Below are positions 1,924 through 9,857 of a DNA stretch of 10,347 nucleotides, one piece after another. The DNA comes from a virus (Duplodnaviria > Heunggongvirae > Uroviricota > Caudoviricetes): IMG/VR virus record IMGVR_UViG_2698536570_000008. One strand, 5' to 3'. The translations under genes and the position numbers were made by a program. The notes beneath the pieces are model-generated. The model was not told the DNA's origin and ran no database searches. It saw only the letters and a program-made list of their open reading frames with translations. The stretch's first letter is position 1, and each line of letters opens with the position of its first letter.

Positions 1924-2812
1924 CGTGTTCACCCTCACGAACTTTCAGGTAGGTATTATCGTTAAGCAGGAAATCAAATCCCTTTTTGTGCCAGACGGTT
2001 CCGCGCTGATGGTTTGGGCGCTCTTCGAACATCCATCGGCAATTTTCGCCTACGTAGCTCAAATAATTTCTCCAGTCCTGCATCGTGAACCCATGCCCGT
2101 CAAGCTGGCGGGTTATCACTCCGGCTTTGCGCCAGAACGTTCGGATCTGGTTTTTACGCTTGTCATTCAGTGCGCGGATTTTTGGCGCTTCAGGAAGGAT
2201 TTCGTGGTAAGCATCGACAACATCCTGACAGCTAACGGAAGGTTTTTTCTTGTCAGACTTTTTGTCTGCTGTGGCACTCTCTAATACGTCAGTATTAGAG
2301 ATAATATTATTATATTCTTTATCTGTGGTAATTTGCTGGTAATCTGCTGGTACAGTATTGCTTACAGGCATTGGTATTTCTGGCTTTGAGGTGGTAATTT
2401 GCTGGTAATCTGCTGGTACAAAATTTGACTGATAATCGTCATATTTCTCTACCGAGAAAACTGAGAATTTACCGTGTGAAACCCAGTCAATCATGCCGAG
2501 TTTTTTGAACTTTCTAAGCAGGTACTGAACGCGATCTGGTTTGAGTCCTGTTTCAAACGCCAGAGAGTTTCTACCGCCAAGTAGCTTCCCTCTGCCTACC
2601 AGAATTTCTCCTGCGTCAGTCATTACATACTCAGGCGTATGCTTTGCTTTGAGGATTAAGTGAACCCACAGATGCGCAGCTTCTGCGTCCTTGTAAAACG
2701 GCACATCCATAATTTTACGGTGCAGCAAGGCATACCCCTTACCGCTGCTTTGATGCGGTTGTTGTAGCCTTCTGGCCTCTCTGGCTTCGGCTAGATTAGA
2801 TATGTTACTCAT
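1913..2812 (-). CDS. O: Replication initiation protein, lambda O / P22 gene 18-like (replisome organiser)
   Basis: ORF track 1913..2812 (-), 299 aa; strong SD AAGGAGAAAGG before the ATG at 2812; sits between cII and the helicase as in lambdoid phages; contains the internal iteron array that encodes the duplicated peptide [10 protein letters not shown]. Confidence 0.75.
2322..2420. repeat. Putative replication origin: iteron array inside the O-like gene with an adjacent AT-rich stretch (2281-2320)
   Basis: Exact 30-bp direct repeat gtggtaatttgctggtaatctgctggtaca at 2325-2354 and 2391-2420, each made of about 11-bp subunits (ctgtggtaat / ttgctggtaat / ctgctggtaca); immediately followed in gene orientation by the AT-rich stretch ctaatacgtcagtattagagataatattattatattcttt. 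Confidence 0.6.
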
Positions 2813-2951
2813 GACCTTTCTCCTTCTGCATCAGCTTCACTTTTTCCAACTCAGCCCGGAATCGACCAGGCTGCTTGAAGCTGGACAGGAAGCGATCACG
2901 TAGTATGTGTTTGTGAATTTTGTCCTGGTAAGGACTGAGTTGTTTTGTCAT
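2805..2951 (-). CDS. Hypothetical small basic protein (48 aa, [21 protein letters not shown]...)
   Basis: Internal ATG (2951..2949) of ORF track 2805..3044 with AGGAG SD upstream (complement of about 2957-2961); overlaps the O-like start by 8 nt. The longer track ORF would overlap the cII 3' end, so the shorter start is preferred. Confidence 0.35.
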
Positions 2952-2985
2952 AATGACTCCTGTGGATTGATCCAGTCTTTCTACA

Positions 2986-3267
2986 TCAGGCCTCGAAGAA
3001 TTCGCCGTTCTTCGGGGCTTTTTCTTTTGTAAGGTAATTGGCAAGCCGATTAGTCAATTCAGCCATTTCATCGTCTTCGATTCCGTATTCCAGAACAGCC
3101 AGCATCATGCTTACCTGCGAGAAGAAACCATTCTTCCATCTGCTTACCTGATATTCAGGAACCCCCATTGCTCGAGCGAATGTCTTCTGCCCCATCAGTG
3201 CCAGTTTGTTCAGCAAGGCTGACTCGATGCGAGCCGCTTTCTTGCTTTTAGTTGCAATAGTACCCAT
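2986..3267 (-). CDS. cII: Transcriptional activator CII (lambda cII family)
   Basis: 93 aa; [11 protein letters not shown]...QVSRWK...[17 protein letters not shown] closely parallels lambda CII ([11 protein letters not shown]...QISRWK...MLLAVLEWGVVDDDMARL, from memory); AAGGAAA SD; position between cro and O. Confidence 0.85.
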
Positions 3268-3275
3268 AGATAATT
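3242..3275 (+). promoter_or_regulatory. Candidate pRE (CII-activated promoter) reading antisense through cro toward cI
   Basis: TTGC-N6-TTGC (3242-3245 and 3252-3255, plus strand) lying inside the first codons of cII as in lambda pRE, with a -10-like GATAAT at 3270-3275. Confidence 0.4.
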
Positions 3276-3343
3276 TCCTTAATGATTAGATAGAGTTGGC
3301 TTCGCAAAGAAACGCAAAACCATAGAGATTTGTTTCTGGTAAT

Positions 3344-3375
3344 GCCCTTTTTCAGGGCGGGGATGTGTAAGAGCG
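3344..3375 (-). promoter_or_regulatory. nutR: nutR (N utilisation site: boxA + boxB) in the cro-cII interval
   Basis: On the minus strand: boxA CGCTCTTA (complement of 3368-3375) followed by boxB GCCCTGAAAAAGGGC (complement of 3344-3358), matching the lambda nutR boxB as I recall it. Confidence 0.8.
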
Positions 3376-3383
3376 GGAATGTC

Positions 3384-3599
3384 TTAAGCGGCTTTGTGTT
3401 CCGGCGGGAACAAGCCATCTAGCGTTGTCTTGCTCCCCAATTTATTCAGCGCCTTTACCAGGCGACGGCACGACTCTAAATCTGGAGTCCGGATACCTGA
3501 CTCGTAGTTAGCTAAGCGGGACTGGTTCCAGCCACACGCGCCTGCTAACGCAGATTGAGTGATGCCAAGCTTTTTCCGTTCGTTGGCAATGTTGTTCAT
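3384..3599 (-). CDS. cro: Cro-like HTH repressor (first gene of the pR operon)
   Basis: 71 aa; HTH signature LGITQSALAGACGWNQSRLANYESG; divergent from the cI-like gene across the operator region; AAGGAAA SD. Confidence 0.75.
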   Translation of the reverse strand: MNNIANERKKLGITQSALAGACGWNQSRLANYESGIRTPDLESCRRLVKALNKLGSKTTLDGLFPPEHKAA

Positions 3600-3632
3600 A
3601 GGTTTCCTTAAGAGCTAGTTCACTCAGTCTTT

Positions 3633-3698
3633 ATTAAACACATATTGTGATTGATAGTCAACACAAATCGTGTAAAGCCTTAAACCACGGAATGTGAT
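3633..3698. promoter_or_regulatory. OR operator cluster with divergent pR (minus) and pRM-like (plus) promoters
   Basis: Dyad-symmetric sites ACACATATTGTGAT (3638-3651), ACACAAATCGTGTA (3661-3674), CCACGGAATGTGAT (3685-3698). pR on minus strand: -35 TTGACT (complement of 3656-3661), 17-bp spacer, -10 TTTAAT (complement of 3633-3638). Possible pRM -10 TATAAA at 3698-3703. Confidence 0.6.
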
Positions 3699-3703
3699 AT
3701 AAA

Positions 3704-4345
3704 ATGCGCATGAACAGAACAGAAACTATCGCCGCGCGTATCAAGCGATTACGGGAAGATAAAGGGCTTTCACAGAAGGCTCTGGCGGAGCTTTGCGGCT
3801 GGGCTTCACAATCTCGGATCGGCAACTATGAATCAGGAACCAGAAGCGTTAGTGTTGATGACGCAGAGGTAATAGCTAAAGCTTTGGGCGTCGCTCCGGC
3901 AGAACTGCTTTTTGGCGACAACTATCAGGGACAATACAAGCCAGGGGAAAAGTTTCCGTTGATTAGCTGGGTTAGCGCAGGTGCATGGAATGAGGCCGTA
4001 GAGCCGTACAACCCTCAGGCAGTGGATGAGTGGTATGAATCAGATTGTCACGTTGTCGGTGACGCCTTCTGGCTCAGGGTTCAGGGCGACTCAATGACAG
4101 CTCCTACCGGCCTTAGCGTTCCTGAGGGTATGCTGGTTCTGTTCGACACTGGAAAGGAAGCCGTTAATGGAAGCCTGGTAGTTGCGAAGCTGACAGATGC
4201 TAATGAAGCCACGTTCAAGAAGCTAATCATTGATGGCGGTAACAAATACCTGAAAGGGCTTAACCCTGCCTATCCGTTGATCCCAATCGACGGCAACTGC
4301 AAGATAATCGGCGTAGCAGTGCAGATGATGATGAAATTCTCCTGA
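3704..4345 (+). CDS. cI: CI-type prophage repressor (N-terminal HTH + C-terminal LexA/S24-like autocleavage domain)
   Basis: 213 aa; HTH LSQKALAELCGWASQSRIGNYESG; C-terminal PLISWVSAG...VQGDSM...ATFKKL...NGNCKIIGV with the catalytic Ser/Lys context shared with P22 C2 and LexA; start could be ATG 3704 or 3710 (no SD, possibly leaderless). Confidence 0.9.
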   Translation: MRMNRTETIAARIKRLREDKGLSQKALAELCGWASQSRIGNYESGTRSVSVDDAEVIAKALGVAPAELLFGDNYQGQYKPGEKFPLISWVSAGAWNEAVEPYNPQAVDEWYESDCHVVGDAFWLRVQGDSMTAPTGLSVPEGMLVLFDTGKEAVNGSLVVAKLTDANEATFKKLIIDGGNKYLKGLNPAYPLIPIDGNCKIIGVAVQMMMKFS

Positions 4346-4368
4346 TATACCCGCCACTTAAAAACATC

Positions 4369-4392
4369 AAACCCGCTTCGGCGGGTTTTTTG
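4369..4392 (+). terminator. Rho-independent terminator after the repressor gene
   Basis: cccgc (4372-4376) / ttcg loop / gcggg (4381-4385) followed by TTTTTT. Confidence 0.7.
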
Positions 4393-4432
4393 TTGCCCAA
4401 AGAAAATTAAATTACCTTAAAAATCAATGAAA

Positions 4433-4495
4433 ACACGTGTTGTGATAAAAACAATCACATTTCGTGTTGACAGCACGAACACAATTTGTGATTAT
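4433..4495 (+). promoter_or_regulatory. OL operator cluster with pL promoter
   Basis: Sites ACACGTGTTGTGAT (4433-4446), ATCACATTTCGTGT (4454-4467, inverted) and ACACAATTTGTGAT (4479-4492), same consensus as OR. pL: -35 TTGACA (4467-4472), 17-bp spacer, -10 GATTAT (4490-4495). Confidence 0.65.
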
Positions 4496-4534
4496 CTAGC
4501 CATCAGCAGGACGCACTGACCACCATGAAGGTGA

Positions 4535-4565
4535 CGCTCTTAAAAATTAAGCCCTGAAGAAGGGC
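4535..4565 (+). promoter_or_regulatory. nutL: nutL (boxA + boxB)
   Basis: boxA CGCTCTTA at 4535-4542 and boxB GCCCTGAAGAAGGGC at 4551-4565, about 35-65 nt downstream of the predicted pL start; matches lambda nutL as I recall it. Confidence 0.85.
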
Positions 4566-4833
4566 AGCATTCAAAGCAGAAGGCTTTGGGGTGTGGTGAA
4601 GCCAGCTAGTCACTGGCAAGTGCTTACCTACTGTTGAGCGGTGAAGCGCTCCCAACGCTAGCAATAGCGTGGACGAGATGGGGAGCCGCGGGCGATAAGG
4701 CCGCCATAACGCGCATGTTGTCGCATGGAAAAATCGCTGGGGTGCCGGTTATACCCCTCCGAATGAGACTCAACAAGCTGGAGCTAGACTACCAGCCACC
4801 ACACCACCAAAGCTAACTGACAGGAGAATCCAG

Positions 4834-5166
4834 ATGGATGCACAAACACGCCGCCGCGAACGTCGCGCAGAGAAACAGGCTCAATGGAAAGCAGCAAATC
4901 CCCTGTTGGTTGGGGTAAGCGCAAAGCCAGTTAACCGCCCTATTCTCTCGCTGAATCGCAAACCGAAATCACGAGTAGAAAGCGCACTGAATCCGATAGA
5001 CCTTACGGTGCTGGCTGAATACCACGAACAGATTGAAAGCAACCTGCAACGTATTGAGCGCAAGAATCAGCGCACATGGTACAGCAAGCCACGCAGTGAA
5101 ATGGGTGTGACCTGCTCAGGCCGCCAGAAGCAACGCGGAAAATCAATTCCAGCTTATTACGATTGA
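4834..5166 (+). CDS. N: Antitermination protein N (lambda N-like)
   Basis: 110 aa beginning MDAQTRRRERRAEKQAQWKAANPLLVGVSAKPVNRPILSLNRKPKSRVESA (arginine-rich boxB-binding motif), near-identical to lambda N as recalled; AGGAG SD; downstream of pL/nutL. Confidence 0.9.
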   Translation: MDAQTRRRERRAEKQAQWKAANPLLVGVSAKPVNRPILSLNRKPKSRVESALNPIDLTVLAEYHEQIESNLQRIERKNQRTWYSKPRSEMGVTCSGRQKQRGKSIPAYYD

Positions 5167-5174
5167 GGTGAGCC

Positions 5175-5312
5175 ATGCTCAAGAAAGTCAAACGCCGACT
5201 TTACAAAGAAGGTAGATATTCATGCCAATTGCCAAAATGCGACACAACAAAATGGAGTGTCGATGATTGGTGTAACTGGATAGATAGATACGGAACTTGG
5301 TGGGATAAATAA
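5175..5312 (+). CDS. Hypothetical small Cys-containing protein (45 aa, MLKKVKRRLYKEGRYSCQLPKCDTTKWSVDDWCNWIDRYGTWWDK)
   Basis: ATG at 5175 with GAGGTGA SD 5 nt upstream, 8 nt after the N stop; stop TAA 5310-5312. Under 60 aa so absent from the ORF track. No family recognised. Confidence 0.3.
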   Translation: MLKKVKRRLYKEGRYSCQLPKCDTTKWSVDDWCNWIDRYGTWWDK

Positions 5313-5369
5313 CAGGTAACTTAAGCGTATTTACTTTCGCAGCAAACCACTTATTTGAGAGGAATTAAT

Positions 5370-5993
5370 ATGTCATCAATCCGCTTAACTACGAGAATGA
5401 AAGAGGAAATCGCTCGTAACGCTTTAATTAAGTCTGGGGTTTTCACTGAACTTGAAGAAGTAACAAAGTTAAATAACCAGCTTGCACTTGACGCCAGAGT
5501 TATTGCGTTTGGCGGTAAAAAGAAAACTGAGGAAGTGGATCAGTTATCATCCAAGTTGGTAGCTCTAGGTGAAGAACTTGAAAAGATGGGATGTTCATTT
5601 TACTTATACGATGTTCGTTCTACTTCAATTTATCTGACTGTATCTGGCAGAAGGGTTGGATGGTATTCATATGGGAAAGACGGCAACGGCGAAGATATAT
5701 TGCTCCCTACTCCGACCAAAGATAAATGCATGTTTAGCGCAGAACACGAAATAACAAAAAGGTTTGATGAAATCTGCGCATTGCAACAAAAACTTGAAGC
5801 CAAGAAAAAGGATATCGTATCAAATGTATGGGCTGCTTTGAACTCAGTCACAACAGTTAAGCGACTTATTGAAGTTTGGCCTGAAAGCAAAGAATTGCTA
5901 CCAAAAGAAGCAGATAAAGCAAGTACAGCACTTCCTGCTTTACGGGTAGAAGATTTGAATAAGATGATTGGACTTCCTTCCGAGGCCGCATAG
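5370..5993 (+). CDS. Hypothetical protein, 207 aa, first gene of a low-GC accessory island (unknown function)
   Basis: ORF track 5355..5993; preferred start ATG 5370 with GAGAGGA SD; codon region about 38% GC versus about 50%+ for flanking phage genes; not hydrophobic, no motif recognised. Confidence 0.7.
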   Translation: MSSIRLTTRMKEEIARNALIKSGVFTELEEVTKLNNQLALDARVIAFGGKKKTEEVDQLSSKLVALGEELEKMGCSFYLYDVRSTSIYLTVSGRRVGWYSYGKDGNGEDILLPTPTKDKCMFSAEHEITKRFDEICALQQKLEAKKKDIVSNVWAALNSVTTVKRLIEVWPESKELLPKEADKASTALPALRVEDLNKMIGLPSEAA

Positions 5994-6008
5994 TCGGCCT
6001 TTATTTTG
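5982..6008 (+). terminator. Possible intrinsic terminator or attenuator overlapping the stop codon of the 207-aa gene
   Basis: aggccg (5983-5988) / 6-nt loop / cggcct (5995-6000) followed by TTATTTT. Confidence 0.45.
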
Positions 6009-6030
6009 GGCATAAACAACAGAGGTGAAT

Positions 6031-6318
6031 ATGAAAGAGTTTAAGGGTACGCCTGGTAAATGGAAGTACACGGTTAGAAACGTCAACGAGATGATGACTA
6101 CGTTCCATGGTGTGACGATTGGTGACACATACATTGAAGCAGCAACAAGAAATGAAAGGGAGGATGCGCTACTGATAGCGGCAGCACCTGACCTTCTCGA
6201 AGCACTTCAGTTATTACTTAAGCAATCCAAAAATAGAACAACGACAACATATCCAGAATGGTATGAAGCTGTTAATAAAGGTCTTGCAGCAATCAGAAAA
6301 GCTCTTGGGGATAAGTAA
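6031..6318 (+). CDS. Hypothetical protein (95 aa, MKEFKGTPGKWKYTV...LIAAAPDLLEALQ...), low-GC island
   Basis: ORF track 6025..6318; ATG 6031 with AGAGG SD; stop TAA 6316-6318 overlaps the next start (TAATG). Confidence 0.6.
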   Translation: MKEFKGTPGKWKYTVRNVNEMMTTFHGVTIGDTYIEAATRNEREDALLIAAAPDLLEALQLLLKQSKNRTTTTYPEWYEAVNKGLAAIRKALGDK

Positions 6319-6506
6319 TGAAAGTAAAAATAACTGCTTCTAATACCAGTTTTGTTAGTGTTGGTGATATTACAGAAGTAATAACAAACCATGATGGAAC
6401 ACAAGTTATGTGGTCTGATTTTTGTAAAAGATATGAGCGAGTCACTTGGTGTAAACTCGTATGGGGCGTCGAATACGAAGAATTACCTGAAATGCATGAC
6501 GAATAA
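6318..6506 (+). CDS. Hypothetical protein (62 aa), translationally coupled to the upstream gene, low-GC island
   Basis: ORF track 6318..6506; ATG overlaps the upstream stop by 1 nt; low GC. Confidence 0.55.
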   Translation: MKVKITASNTSFVSVGDITEVITNHDGTQVMWSDFCKRYERVTWCKLVWGVEYEELPEMHDE

Positions 6507-6601
6507 GCACTGTGTATTCATTCCAACGAGTGAATACACGGAGCAATGTCGCTCGTAACTAAACAGGAGCCGACTTGTTCTGATTATTGGAAATCTTCTT
6601 T

Positions 6602-6627
6602 GCCCTCCAGTGTGAGGGCTTTTTTAT
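6602..6627 (+). terminator. Rho-independent terminator (tL-like) between the low-GC island and the cIII-like gene
   Basis: gccctc (6602-6607) / cagtgt loop / gagggc (6614-6619) followed by TTTTTTAT. Confidence 0.7.
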
Positions 6628-6691
6628 ATGCATACCAATAACGCTTCACTCGAGGCGTTTTCGTTATGCAATCAAATATAAGGAGTTACCC

Positions 6692-6826
6692 ATGATGCAC
6701 TTTCAGCTCGCGGGTAGCGGCGTCATGTCCGCTTTCTACCCGCACGAATCTGAATTATCACGCCGAGTTAAACAATTAATCAGAGCAGCAAAGAAACAAC
6801 TGGAGGCGTTATGCGCAATGAAATAG
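6692..6826 (+). CDS. cIII: cIII-like small protein (44 aa, MMHFQLAGSGVMSAFYPHESELSRRVKQLIRAAKKQLEALCAMK)
   Basis: Strong SD TAAGGAG 6 nt before ATG 6692; small size and position immediately upstream of the Kil-like gene as in lambda/P22 pL operons; the amphipathic central helix is reminiscent of CIII. Family assignment is from gene order plus weak similarity only. Confidence 0.45.
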   Translation: MMHFQLAGSGVMSAFYPHESELSRRVKQLIRAAKKQLEALCAMK

Positions 6827-6963
6827 CCATTAATCACCAGATGCTTCGTGCTGCACAGAACAAAGCAGTAATAGCCAGATTTATTGGTGATTCCAAAATG
6901 TGGCTTGAAGCAAATAAAGCGATGAAATCAGCTATCAACCTTCCGTGGTATCGCAGGAAATGA
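6811..6963 (+). CDS. kil: Kil-like host division inhibitor (50 aa, MRNEIAINHQMLRAAQNKAVIARFIGDSKMWLEANKAMKSAINLPWYRRK)
   Basis: ATG 6811 with GGAGG SD; overlaps the cIII-like 3' end; motif IA-FIGD-KM--EA resembles lambda Kil (IATFIGDEKMFREA, from memory). Under 60 aa so not in the ORF track. Confidence 0.5.
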   Translation: MRNEIAINHQMLRAAQNKAVIARFIGDSKMWLEANKAMKSAINLPWYRRK

Positions 6964-7130
6964 GTTTTACAGATAACTGGTCAGACGAAGAATTCATTCG
7001 TCAGATGAAAGAATTAATCGGTAACGAAGGAGATATTCATGTCACTTGCAACCACAGTGAAGGAGAGCAAGTTACAGAGACGCATGTACACGCAGCAGGC
7101 GTTAATGTATCGCCAGAAGGGAGATCGTGA
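6960..7130 (+). CDS. Hypothetical small acidic protein (56 aa), in the position of P22 arf
   Basis: ORF track 6945..7130; ATG 6960 overlaps the Kil-like stop (ATGA); lies between kil-like and erf. Function not supported by motifs. Confidence 0.35.
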   Translation: MSFTDNWSDEEFIRQMKELIGNEGDIHVTCNHSEGEQVTETHVHAAGVNVSPEGRS

Positions 7131-8231: not shown

Positions 8232-8525
8232 ATGCCAGCGCCTCTGTATGGTGCGGATGACGCGCGCCGCTGTTCCGGCAATTCCGTATCGGAGGTGCTG
8301 GATAAATTCAGAAAAAACTACGACCTGATAATGTCGCTACCGCAGGAAACGAAAGAGGAAAAGGAATTTCGCCATTGTATATGGCTTGCAGAGAAAGAAG
8401 AACGCGAGCGAATTTACCAGACATCAATCCGACCATTCCGCAAAGCCACATATACCCACTTCCCTGAAATTGACCCGCGCCTGCGTAATTACCGCTCACG
8501 CTATGGCGCTATCAGTAATGACTGA
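8232..8525 (+). CDS. abc2: Putative Abc2-like anti-RecBCD protein (97 aa)
   Basis: Size and position downstream of erf match P22 abc2; the sequence [10 protein letters not shown]...[43 protein letters not shown] resembles my recollection of Abc2. Not verified by search. Confidence 0.5.
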
Positions 8526-8703: not shown

Positions 8704-8972
8704 GTAATTCAGCACGACTACAGCTTGGTTTTTCACCGCTATCAAAAACTATCATGCTGGCAAAAATGCGCGATGTTGAAGGTGGACGTATGCGCGTTGG
8801 CAATGATCCAGGTCGTGATGTTACCAATGAGGCTGCTCAATTGGTGTGGCGACTGGTCATGGCTGAAGGTGGTGAGATCGCGTGGGAGCTGGATGATGGT
8901 TCTCGCATGGTGTTGAAGGCAGAAAAGCAGGAGGCAACCAGTGAGCAACATCGACAAACAGGCGCTGCGTGA
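8700..8972 (+). CDS. Hypothetical protein (about 90 aa; GTG start)
   Basis: ORF track 8679..8972; GTG 8700 preceded by a perfect AGGAGG SD (8688-8693) and overlapping the upstream stop (GTGA); ATG 8679 is an alternative start. Confidence 0.4.
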
Positions 8973-9330
8973 AATCGCAGCGGCAGCAGTTGGCGCACAT
9001 GAGCGCCTTAGTGTTATGCCGCCTGATGACATTTTCGATATCTCACTGGCAGAAGGAACTCAGCTTGATGCAGATATCACTGCCTTGAACGCGCTGAACT
9101 CCGCAGCAAACCCCGCCACCGTGCTGGCGCTGCTGGCATCGCTGGAAGCCGCAGAGAAGCGGATTGCCGAGCTGGAGGCGCGGCAGGTTGTACTGCCGCG
9201 TACGCAAGATGTTCACCCGTTAGGGCCACAGTCGGCGAAAATTTTTTGTGATTTTCACAGAAATATTATCAACAGATGCGCCGATGAGATTCGCAAAGTT
9301 GGCGTTAATGTCAGCATAAAGGGGGAGTAG
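8941..9330 (+). CDS. Hypothetical protein (129 aa; GTG start), Ala/Leu-rich central region
   Basis: ORF track 8941..9330; start context is the same 17-bp AGGAGGCAACCAGTGAG as at 8688-8704; overlaps the upstream gene by 32 nt. Confidence 0.5.
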   Translation: MSNIDKQALREIAAAAVGAHERLSVMPPDDIFDISLAEGTQLDADITALNALNSAANPATVLALLASLEAAEKRIAELEARQVVLPRTQDVHPLGPQSAKIFCDFHRNIINRCADEIRKVGVNVSIKGE

Positions 9331-9334
9331 GGAT

Positions 9335-9519
9335 ATGGCTGAATTTACGAAAGAGCGCATTATCGAAGAGATGAAAGCATCGACGCAGAACACCAGTGGT
9401 ATGTTTGAAATCAGCGAGGACACCATATGCGCGTTGATGTCCATGCTCTCCTACCCGCCAGCGCCGGTATCTGTGCCCGCTGCGATGGAAATTGATGATG
9501 ACTTTGACAGCGCGTTTGA
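9335..9519 (+). CDS. Hypothetical protein, 5' portion only (runs into the assembly gap)
   Basis: ATG 9335 five nt after the upstream stop, with a purine-rich upstream stretch; reading frame continues into the N run at 9520. Confidence 0.4.
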
Positions 9520-9569
9520 NNNNNNNNNNNNNNNNNNNNNNNNNNNNNNNNNNNNNNNNNNNNNNNNNN
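9520..9569. other. Assembly gap (50 N)
   Basis: Run of 50 unresolved bases; true length of missing sequence is unknown. Confidence 0.95.
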
Positions 9570-9857
9570 CTGGAGTGGGCTGCACAATTGGCAGAAGCCA
9601 ATCATCCGCAAACAGGTGACTGGTTGTACGACGACCCAATCGATCTTGCCAGGGCGATTCGCAAAGGTCCTGATATGCCTACTGTTCAGGCTGGCAACTC
9701 TCCGGTAACTCCGGATGGTTGGGTTATGGTGCCGAAGGAGCCAACTCAGGCCATGATTAAAGCGTGGCTATCAGAGATTGCTAACTTTCGCGGTCATGCT
9801 GCTGGTTACAGGGCTGCTATAGAAGCAGCACCACAACTGGAGGTTAACCGTGGCTAA
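9570..9857 (+). CDS. Hypothetical protein, 3' portion after the gap (possibly the same gene as 9335..9519)
   Basis: Open frame from the gap edge to TAA 9855-9857 (...GWVMVPKEPTQAMIKAWLSEIANFRGHAAGYRAAIEAAPQLEVNRG); frame relation across the gap cannot be determined. Confidence 0.4.
   Translation: MEWAAQLAEANHPQTGDWLYDDPIDLARAIRKGPDMPTVQAGNSPVTPDGWVMVPKEPTQAMIKAWLSEIANFRGHAAGYRAAIEAAPQLEVNRG

Follow-up and report, generated by a model that had tools for sequence, protein, structure and literature searches.

Positions 5170–6510 of a tailed-phage sequence (Caudoviricetes; IMG/VR record IMGVR_UViG_2698536570_000008) carry four small open reading frames (ORFs) between the genes of antiterminator N and cIII. 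They raise the question of whether a new exclusion or anti-defence cassette, acquired as a unit, is located there, as was proposed in a first-pass annotation. The window analyzed here is the whole stretch of 10,347 nucleotides, which is 100% identical to E. coli AW1.7, whose prophage has decayed, as seen from a Q pseudogene and IS66 insertions. Our preferred answer, which we regard as likely, is that the interval is a hypervariable lambdoid slot filled with three separately exchanged modules of early lytic accessory genes, whose products presumably act at the host interface.

Slot, Flanks, and Base Composition

The flanking genes were placed correctly by that annotation. N and cIII were verified with the Pfam profiles N36 and cIII, a terminator-like hairpin was located at 6602–6619, and all four ORFs were present between them on the plus strand (Table 1). 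The last 12 codons of N, starting at 5130, fall inside module A. On its right side the slot is closed by cIII and kil, which are conserved.

Table 1. Features of the N-to-cIII region (positions in the window).
Feature	Position	Strand	Remarks
pL-like promoter	4467–4495	+	TTGACA, 17-nt spacer, GATTAT; 10/12 consensus, TG extension
nutL boxA, CGCTCTTA	4535–4542	+	Read from sequence
nutL boxB hairpin, GCCCTGAAGAAGGGC	4551–4565	+	Read from sequence; also flagged by hairpin scan
Antiterminator N	4834–5166	+	Pfam N36, 1.6e-26; RefSeq 'antitermination protein N'
Module A	5130–5338	+	Variant N 3' end and orf45; breakpoint mapping
orf45	5175–5312	+	45 aa
Module B	5339–6023	+	Nmad5 gene, its ribosome-binding site, and terminator-like hairpin; breakpoint mapping
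Nmad5-family gene	5370–5993	+	207 aa
Terminator-like hairpin	5982–6001	+	Overlaps Nmad5 stop codon; moves with Nmad5 module
Module C	6024–6506	+	orf95 and orf62; breakpoint mapping
orf95	6031–6318	+	95 aa counted from ATG
orf62	6318–6506	+	62 aa
Lambdoid boundary sequence with terminator hairpins (6602–6619, 6640–6659)	6507–6691	+	Upstream of cIII
cIII	6692–6826	+	Pfam cIII, 2e-30
kil	6811–6963	+	Pfam Lambda_Kil, 1.7e-20

The N-to-cIII interval of lambda carries ral, sieB, and ea10. It is the same slot on the same strand with the same N-dependent logic of early expression, its content is likewise non-essential, AT-rich, and exchangeable, and the conserved junction and the terminator before cIII are common to the lambdoid intervals and the window. 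The view of this interval as a lambdoid accessory slot was borne out by other E. coli prophages, which hold different cargo there, namely Ral, a superinfection exclusion protein, HNH endonucleases, or Ea10. Pfam and PHROG scans of the four proteins gave no match to Ral, SieB, or Ea10, detecting other families only, and an Rfam scan of the whole window detected no RNA family.

The GC content of the island was 39.7% against 47.8% for the remainder of the window, which places it within the lowest 0.35% of same-size windows of the prophage (mean 51.2%), and its GC3 was 0.24–0.39. The dip noted in the first-pass annotation is hence real for the island, though the 207-aa gene was evaluated at 40.1% instead of 38%, and the supposed contrast with flanking genes of more than 50% GC was overstated, as the adjoining kil, arf, erf, and ssb have only 41–45%.

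On the right side, positions 6499–6700 are 100% identical to HK97, in which they are annotated as terminator plus cIII, and the same stretch of Sf6 is annotated as 'bsq4; boundary sequence' and 'terminator'. In lambda this stretch is interrupted and split around ea10. Among 5426 E. coli genomes, 2234 contain the boundary sequence. Judging from these annotations, the right edge of the island is the known lambdoid boundary sequence with its predicted terminator before cIII.

Three Independently Shuffled Modules

Sharp and recurrent breakpoints were identified at 5129/5130, 5338/5339, 6023/6024, and 6506/6507, which delimit the modules A, B, and C. Similarity stops at 5129 in 52 loci. For 80 IMG/VR viral loci whose Nmad5 is 93–97% identical to the window copy, matching begins at 5339 in 63 and stops at 6023 in 72, and a direct jump from 6023 to 6507 was observed in 56. 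Only a few of these 80 loci also contained orf45 (two), orf95 (seven), or orf62 (one), and cIII started 228–229 nt past Nmad5 in 8 of the 18 loci with a recognized cIII. A similar picture was obtained for the 5426 E. coli genomes when at least 80% of a segment was required for presence: the Nmad5 gene was detected in 209, the orf45 segment in 125, the orf62 segment in 102, and orf95 in 5, while the complete four-gene set was found in AW1.7 only.

Neither the 80 loci nor the 5426 genomes nor the breakpoints exhibited co-inheritance of the four genes as a single cassette. The N-to-cIII island consists of three independently shuffled modules and is not a single acquisition, so that the single-cassette view was not confirmed. 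The supposition that the ORFs belong to no recognizable family also failed, since Pfam families were assigned to three of the four and PHROG families to all of them. An unrelated new cassette acquired as a unit is therefore not what this interval contains; the genes assort independently and each falls in a catalogued family. The region represents ordinary lambdoid mosaicism built from known phage families.

Small Proteins of Modules A and C

The orf45 product, unannotated in RefSeq, was assigned to Pfam DUF5484 (2.6e-12; score 46.7 bits, cut-off 27) and to phrog_1871 (1.4e-22), and BLASTP detected 50% identity with RB18 gp55.4 (E 2e-13). It shares the size class (43–45 aa) and the core DTTKWSV.DW..ID..G.W with T4-type gp55.4, though the latter resides in T-even genomes and orf45 in a lambdoid one. 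In T2, gp55.4 is transcribed early to middle (PMC13001434), and orf45 is likewise early, judging by its position. A zinc-binding role of orf45 was rejected, because the T4-type homologues do not retain its three cysteines. A connection between gp55.4 and the Tmn defence system was also discarded, as their joint mention is a mere transcript list in a 2026 preprint (PMC13001434). Literature searches on DUF5484, on the PHROG/Pfam identifiers, and on mEp235 in combination with anti-defence yielded nothing relevant.

The orf95 and orf62 products were matched to phrog_1273 (3.8e-27) and phrog_10407 (1.5e-45), respectively. The former is a probable member of PF27050 (Phage_P22_Y8K6), to which precomputed hits assign all its listed homologues, among them cluster representatives 91–99% identical to orf95; the family takes its name from an uncharacterized ORF of phage P22. 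RefSeq calls it 'XkdD/Y8K6 family phage-associated protein', though NCBIfam gave no match for any of the four ORFs or for the GS04 protein carrying this label. Salmonella Y8K6 genes occupy the same slot as orf95 (order N, DUF7446, Y8K6, GP17, cIII), and family members share with orf95 the AAPDLLEAL hinge and the C-terminal ending ALG. The orf95 protein combines an invariant type-A N-terminal domain with a variant of the C-terminal helix, which in strains GS04 and E2348/69 is joined to a different N-terminal domain. An orf95-orf62-type gene pair is also present in these two strains. The structural model of orf95 was too poor for a structure search (pLDDT 69 overall, and below 50 for most of residues 1–37). 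A weak sequence match of orf95 to the RNA polymerase beta-prime subunit (E 0.08), in which no stretch exceeded the threshold, was taken as chance.

These two genes may be a cognate two-protein unit, either toxin-antitoxin-like or of an effector-adaptor type, in which the variable C-terminal helix fits the downstream partner. The orf95 stop codon overlaps the orf62 start codon (TAATG), orf62 travels with the same C-terminal variant even where the N-terminal domain differs, and distinct small ORFs (66, 70, and 53 aa) lie downstream of other C-terminal variants; furthermore, the N-terminal 60 residues of Y8K6 proteins are very strongly constrained by purifying selection (omega 0.03–0.07) while residues 61–86 are hypervariable. 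Adjacent DNA is, however, trivially co-inherited, and hence linkage alone accounts for this pattern. One locus (L099) has no downstream small ORF, Pfam, NCBIfam, and PADLOC gave no match to toxin-antitoxin or defence families, and the orf95 model is of low confidence in its N-terminal half, so that we rate a cognate pair as unlikely. The arrangement can also be pictured as an invariant Y8K6 effector domain with a swappable specificity helix and a matching partner.

Nmad5-Family Protein of Module B

The 207-aa protein was matched to Pfam Nmad5 (PF18757) at 2e-70 (score 237.5 bits, curated cut-off 27) in full length, with residues 4–203 aligned to positions 1–206 of the 206-position profile, and to phrog_1965 at 1.8e-81. 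RefSeq labels it as Nmad5, 'putative nucleotide modification protein'; the Nmad names reportedly originate from Iyer et al. in 2013. Proteins 94–96% identical to it are encoded at the same position after N in HK542, mEp235, and Stx1a-converting phages. In the examined Stx2a phages, the gene is interrupted by an IS element. The family comprises 2415 clusters at 50% identity from both temperate and virulent phages, and a typical member is a standalone protein of about 200 aa. In Serratia and Providencia prophages, its gene is the first one after the S24 repressor.

The window protein bears the C-terminal signature T162..K/R-L...WPE..ELLP...LPA..V.DLN..IGLP. Among 40 sequences of 24–56% identity, T162, L166, P178, and N197 were invariant, and W170, P171, E172, L176, L196, and G201 were at least 90% conserved; no catalytic residue pattern was recognized among the conserved positions. 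A structure comparison gave no match to an enzyme-like fold, and sequence-based searches for solved-structure homologues of Nmad5 and orf95, performed with single sequences and with profiles, returned noise alone.

A pN/pS ratio of 0.40 was evaluated for Nmad5 against 0.04–0.08 for erf, ssb, and kil, and it evolves at approximately ten times the rate of its neighbors; the value for its C-terminal module is 0.18. The window allele contains four private substitutions and differs from the consensus by eight nonsynonymous and no synonymous changes. In view of these changes and of the degraded state of the prophage, the AW1.7 copies of the island genes may now be free of selection. Diversifying selection on Nmad5 was considered and rejected: dN/dS is about 0.8 against the window copy but 0.40 over all pairs, so that only the window allele shows the excess.

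A functional clue was provided by a distant homologue, approximately 25% identical to the window protein, in the Dhillonvirus phages SM_A8 and SM_S22, which escape from Tmn by Nmad5 K216E/K296E (PMC11846954). The position of these mutations aligns with R165 of the window protein, beside the invariant L166 and the WPE motif, and both forms share the C-terminal signature including this basic residue. The Dhillonvirus form is larger (254 aa) with an insertion of about 40 residues, and its gene is a lone reverse-oriented one amid head and lysis genes, whereas the window form is a standalone protein of 207 aa encoded in an early operon. Deletion of nmad5 in Dhillonvirus did not confer escape, and the direct trigger of Tmn in T2 is RIIB (PMC11846954, PMC13001434); the link between Nmad5 and Tmn is hence indirect.

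Expression Signals and Proposed Role

A consensus scan of 4300–6965 detected the pL-like site as the sole plus-strand promoter-like site. None was found inside the island by this simple search, which weak or non-sigma-70 promoters may escape. Downstream of the pL-like site lies nutL (4535–4565), which we take to be identical to that of lambda. Among the features of a moron, an autonomous unit of promoter, gene, and terminator, the Nmad5 module has the terminator-like hairpin at 5982–6001, while by the consensus scan alone the island has no promoter-like site. The lack of an own promoter and the location behind pL, nutL, and N suggest that the island genes are early lytic, non-essential accessory genes rather than defence genes expressed from the prophage.

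The following scheme is consistent with these observations. In the degraded AW1.7 prophage, the interval 5170–6510 would be the slot of the lambdoid pL operon in which accessory content is hypervariable. Modules A, B, and C lie there end to end and would have been swapped in one by one at conserved junctions, one of which is the boundary sequence with its terminator ahead of cIII. The island genes would be transcribed from pL only upon loss of the repressor, and N together with nutL would carry RNA polymerase past the internal hairpins. Their products may be small binding proteins of the phage–host interface that serve host takeover or counter-defence, a role that we infer from position, timing, and the one genetic result in the approximately 25%-identical homologue. 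The working part of Nmad5 is likely its conserved C-terminal helical module, which would touch a host or immune component and would not be a nucleotide-modifying enzyme. A more specific version, in which Nmad5 is misnamed and is a widespread early counter-defence or immune-sensed factor with R165 in its contact surface, and in which Y8K6 and its small ORF separately make a modular pair, appears rather doubtful.

Alternative Explanations

That the four ORFs arrived as one horizontally acquired cassette encoding a joint new exclusion or anti-defence system is suggested by their contiguity, close spacing, common strand, and uniformly low GC, and by the ral, sieB, or ea10 genes that other phages hold in this slot. 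The rare co-occurrence with Nmad5 described above largely refutes it, as do the restriction of the full set to AW1.7 and the sharp breakpoints between modules; the genes come from different families, each with a wide distribution, and a comparison with PADLOC-DB 2.0 rejected a known defence system, as no family was obtained at E ≤ 0.1 for any of the four proteins. We consider such a cassette extremely improbable. The broader proposal of a new exclusion or anti-defence function under N antitermination survives in part: the slot, the pL/N logic, and the Tmn link of Nmad5 agree with it, while the PADLOC result does not. A lysogen-expressed defence or superinfection exclusion gene similar to sieB or rex would be in keeping with the superinfection exclusion protein present in this slot elsewhere, with HicAB and other cargo near the repressor of related prophages, and with the apparent toxicity of Dhillonvirus nmad5 on cloning (PMC11846954). 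The consensus scan found no internal plus-strand promoter-like site for it in the island, PADLOC gave no match, and Nmad5 and DUF5484 often occur in phages that are strictly virulent (Dhillonvirus, T4-like, and phages of about 70 kb), in which exclusion borne by a lysogen is meaningless. We judge this explanation very unlikely.

Nmad5 could also be part of a DNA base-modification pathway that shields phage DNA from restriction, as its RefSeq name implies. In Pseudomonas M6-like phages and SN1, the only phages reported to have the gene neighborhood on which the family name is based, an Nmad5 gene adjoins a thymidine hypermodification cassette (aGPT-Pplase, kinase, rSAM, and PLP enzyme) (PMC9476957). 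The similarity of the M6-like phages to the window protein is, however, confined to residues 121–207, and the hypermodification enzymes encoded beside their Nmad5 genes are absent in the window. Over the examined 27 kb of the AW1.7 prophage, no base-modification enzyme gene was annotated, and none was found beside its homologues in the Serratia, Providencia, metagenome, and Dhillonvirus loci. As the protein also exhibits neither an enzyme-like fold nor a catalytic residue pattern, and most family members are standalone, a modification pathway has a low probability, comparable to that of lysogen-expressed defence. A slot of separately exchanged early lytic modules remains our preferred explanation.

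Significance

For the window itself these results are of very little importance, its genes being members of catalogued families in an apparently defective prophage. They bear more on the families. The RefSeq label 'Nmad5 family putative nucleotide modification protein' is unsupported in lambdoid contexts, because lambdoid Nmad5 has no partner enzymes, enzyme-like fold, or catalytic residues, and the sole functional mutation known for the family lies within the signature. The early genes Nmad5, gp55.4/DUF5484, and Y8K6 are abundant, and some of them are common to model phages (T4-type, P22) and lambdoid prophages; they are reasonable and cheap targets of screening for host takeover or counter-defence.

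Prophage Layout and State

The window matched, at 100% identity, an E. coli AW1.7 prophage that adjoins sbcB; pL transcription runs along the plus strand. The features of the operon and of the comparison loci are listed in the table below. The nutL site corresponds to that of lambda. Further P22-type early-left genes lie downstream, for which RefSeq gives a phage anti-RecBCD and an ead/Ea22-like product; the operon thus combines N, cIII, and kil of lambda type with arf, erf, and anti-RecBCD genes of P22 type. Between the repressor and pL there is no rex-like cargo, whereas the related E. coli prophage L097 has HicAB and further small genes at this position. ORF calls around 9518–9570 are unreliable because a 50-N run lies there inside overlapping ORFs (9335–9619 and 9492–9857), where RefSeq places a single 585-nt hypothetical gene starting near 9335. 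In the AW1.7 prophage (L001, 7188–15175), an internal stop interrupts Q, ninF carries a frameshift, and the nin region holds two IS66-family elements, located between ninB and the replication genes. This prophage looks defective.

Features of the pL operon, its modules, and the Nmad5 comparison loci
Locus	Feature	Position	Remark
Window	LexA/S24-type repressor	3704–4345	
Window	Bidirectional terminator	4369–4388	Perfect hairpin directly after repressor gene
Window	pL-like promoter	4467–4495	
Window	nutL boxA	4535–4542	CGCTCTTA
Window	nutL boxB	4551–4565	GCCCTGAAGAAGGGC
Window	N	4834–5166	
Window	orf45, Nmad5, orf95, orf62	5175–5312, 5370–5993, 6031–6318, 6318–6506	Island; between N and conserved non-coding stretch
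Window	Module A	5130–5338	Last 12 N codons and orf45
Window	Module B	5339–6023	Nmad5, its ribosome-binding site, hairpin 5982–6001
Window	Module C	6024–6506	orf95 and orf62
Window	Terminator hairpins	6602–6619, 6640–6659	In conserved non-coding stretch upstream of cIII
Window	cIII	6692–6826	Followed by kil, arf, erf, ssb
Window	Anti-RecBCD; ead/Ea22-like	8232–8525; 8941–9330	RefSeq
L092 (Stx2a phage, LC616058.1, 9000–14500)	Nmad5 halves	2130–2588, 3920–4126	IS ORFs 2704–3917
L008, L009, L101 (Dhillonvirus)	Nmad5, 254 aa	2533–3297, 2536–3300, 1548–2312	

Composition and Families of the Island

The four ORFs reported in the first-pass annotation were all present, each with a plausible ribosome-binding site. 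The low GC content described there was confirmed (39.7%, compared with 47.8% elsewhere in the window, within the lowest 0.35% of same-size windows across the prophage), but the contrast had been overstated; the 207-aa gene has 40.1% GC, and the conserved neighbors kil, arf, erf, and ssb only 41–45%. The statement that these genes belong to no recognizable family did not hold. The 207-aa protein matched Pfam Nmad5 over its full length (2e-70), the name already used in RefSeq. The 45-aa ORF is Pfam DUF5484, whose homologues occur in 1037 phage records, the majority from T4-like phages. Its three cysteines are not conserved in a homologue with 50% identity, RB18 gene 55.4, so that a metal-binding role is unlikely. 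The 95-aa ORF belongs to PF27050 (Phage_P22_Y8K6; 241 clusters in Escherichia, Salmonella, Enterobacter, and Citrobacter), and the 62-aa ORF to PHROG 10407, a family of narrow range (21 clusters in Escherichia and Salmonella). None of the PADLOC or NCBIfam models matched the four island proteins. The genes are already catalogued and annotated, and their novelty is low.

Independent Modules

Presence was evaluated in 5426 complete E. coli genomes as a match to at least 80% of a segment. The Nmad5 segment was found in 209 genomes, orf45 in 125, orf62 in 102, and orf95 in 5, while the whole interval occurred only in two AW1.7 assemblies. Of 80 IMG/VR contigs whose Nmad5 is 93–97% identical to that of the window, 2 carried orf45, 7 carried orf95, and 1 carried orf62, and cIII started 228–229 nt past Nmad5 in 8 of the 18 contigs with a recognized cIII. 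Independent assortment of this kind contradicts the earlier proposal of a single separately acquired cassette.

The breakpoints were nucleotide-identical among the IMG/VR contigs: the match is lost at 5129 (52 loci), begins at 5339 (63 loci), ends at 6023 (72 loci), and resumes at 6507 (56 loci). These shared nucleotides define modules A, B, and C. The final 12 N codons (5130–5166) move with the orf45 module and not with the rest of N. Since the match to most other loci stops at 5129, a recombination joint lies within the N coding sequence. On the right flank, HK97 is 100% identical to window 6499–6700, annotated there as terminator and cIII; the flank is annotated as "boundary sequence" in Sf6 and is split around ea10 in lambda. 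In other E. coli prophages the slot is filled by Ral, by an HNH endonuclease, by a superinfection exclusion protein, or by other hypothetical proteins. The interval is a classic case of lambdoid module exchange at conserved junctions, and confidence in this structural and evolutionary description is high.

Nmad5

The Nmad5 family comprises 2415 clusters at 50% identity, almost all of them standalone proteins of approximately 200 aa, from lambdoid and Stx phages, Dhillonvirus, ~70-kb phages, Pseudomonas M6-like phages, and Bordetella and Vibrio phages. The deeply conserved positions cluster in the C-terminal segment, where T162, L166, P178, and N197 are invariant and W170, P171, E172, L176, L196, and G201 nearly so; no catalytic-looking set was found among the conserved positions. 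The "nucleotide modification" name was traced to an Nmad5 located beside a thymidine-hypermodification cassette in M6-like phages (PMC9476957), which match the window protein at residues 121–207 only. Partner enzymes for hypermodification were found neither in the 27 kb of the AW1.7 prophage examined nor in any other Nmad5 context examined, and prophages of Serratia and Providencia have Nmad5 immediately past the repressor, followed by unrelated genes. A true modification role in the lambdoid context is unlikely.

The all-pairs pN/pS of E. coli-type alleles was 0.40 (0.18 in the C-terminal module, 0.58 for residues 76–150), as compared with 0.04–0.08 for erf, ssb, and kil, indicating a gene that is constrained yet fast-evolving for this operon. 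Relative to the consensus of 72 near-identical copies (from L012–L091), the window allele has 8 nonsynonymous changes and 0 synonymous ones; four changes are private (I66L, S67G, S79L, and E150V). This pattern suggests relaxed selection and fits drift in a crippled prophage. In the Stx2a-converting phage examined, Stx2_716 (L092), an IS3-family element with transposase ORFs of 108 and 296 aa interrupts Nmad5 near codon 35, and lambda-type ea10, cIII, and kil follow the split gene. The same split was seen in all Stx2a records among the matches listed (48 Stx2a records with a match in the collection), which indicates that the gene is dispensable.

The sole experimental data on the family concern Dhillonvirus mutants escaping Tmn, which carry nmad5 K216E (SM_A8) or K296E (SM_S22); reversion restored Tmn sensitivity, deletion of nmad5 gave no escape, and cloning attempts failed with apparent toxicity (PMC11846954). 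Comparison of both phage genomes showed that K216 and K296 are one residue, in NTDK-K-LIKAWPE, with which R165 of the window protein aligns, just N-terminal to the invariant L166 and the WPE motif. The 334-aa SM_S22 start call is probably over-extended; its 80 extra N-terminal residues overlap the scaffold gene. The Dhillonvirus Nmad5 is a lone gene, transcribed against the spanin, scaffold, and capsid genes around it. In T2, Tmn is triggered directly by RIIB, so Nmad5 probably plays an indirect part.

orf95 and orf62

Residues 1–60 of Y8K6 are almost invariant across genera, residues 61–86 are hypervariable in sequence and length, and the last ten are conserved (alignment A3). Purifying selection on the first 60 codons is very strong (omega 0.03–0.07 at dS ~0.2); relative to a metagenome copy (L095), synonymous sites have reached saturation, yet differences affect just 11 of 140 nonsynonymous sites. 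Two Y8K6 members share one pL operon in an E. coli prophage, L098 (3001–3279 and 3946–4188). The window protein is a chimera: GS04 and E2348/69 encode a 98-aa protein nearly identical to orf95 from residue 44 on and different in the central part (residues 12–43). The same overlapping orf62 directly follows the 98-aa protein in both, and other C-terminal variants precede different small ORFs. The products of orf95 and orf62 may form a cognate pair, but the physical linkage of the genes alone accounts for the pattern equally well.

Expression and Proposed Role

The four ORFs sit behind pL, nutL, and N, and a consensus-based scan found no internal promoter-like site in the island. Their transcription would begin only once the repressor is lost, with polymerase modified by N reading through hairpin 5982–6001 and the boundary terminators. 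The frequent occurrence of Nmad5 and DUF5484 in virulent phages makes a defense role expressed from the prophage unlikely. The island genes were shown to be non-essential and to assort independently, and Nmad5, DUF5484, and Y8K6 are three abundant early-gene families. The products of the island genes may be small early proteins that act by binding at the phage–host interface, in host takeover or counter-defense, a functional reading held with moderate to low confidence.
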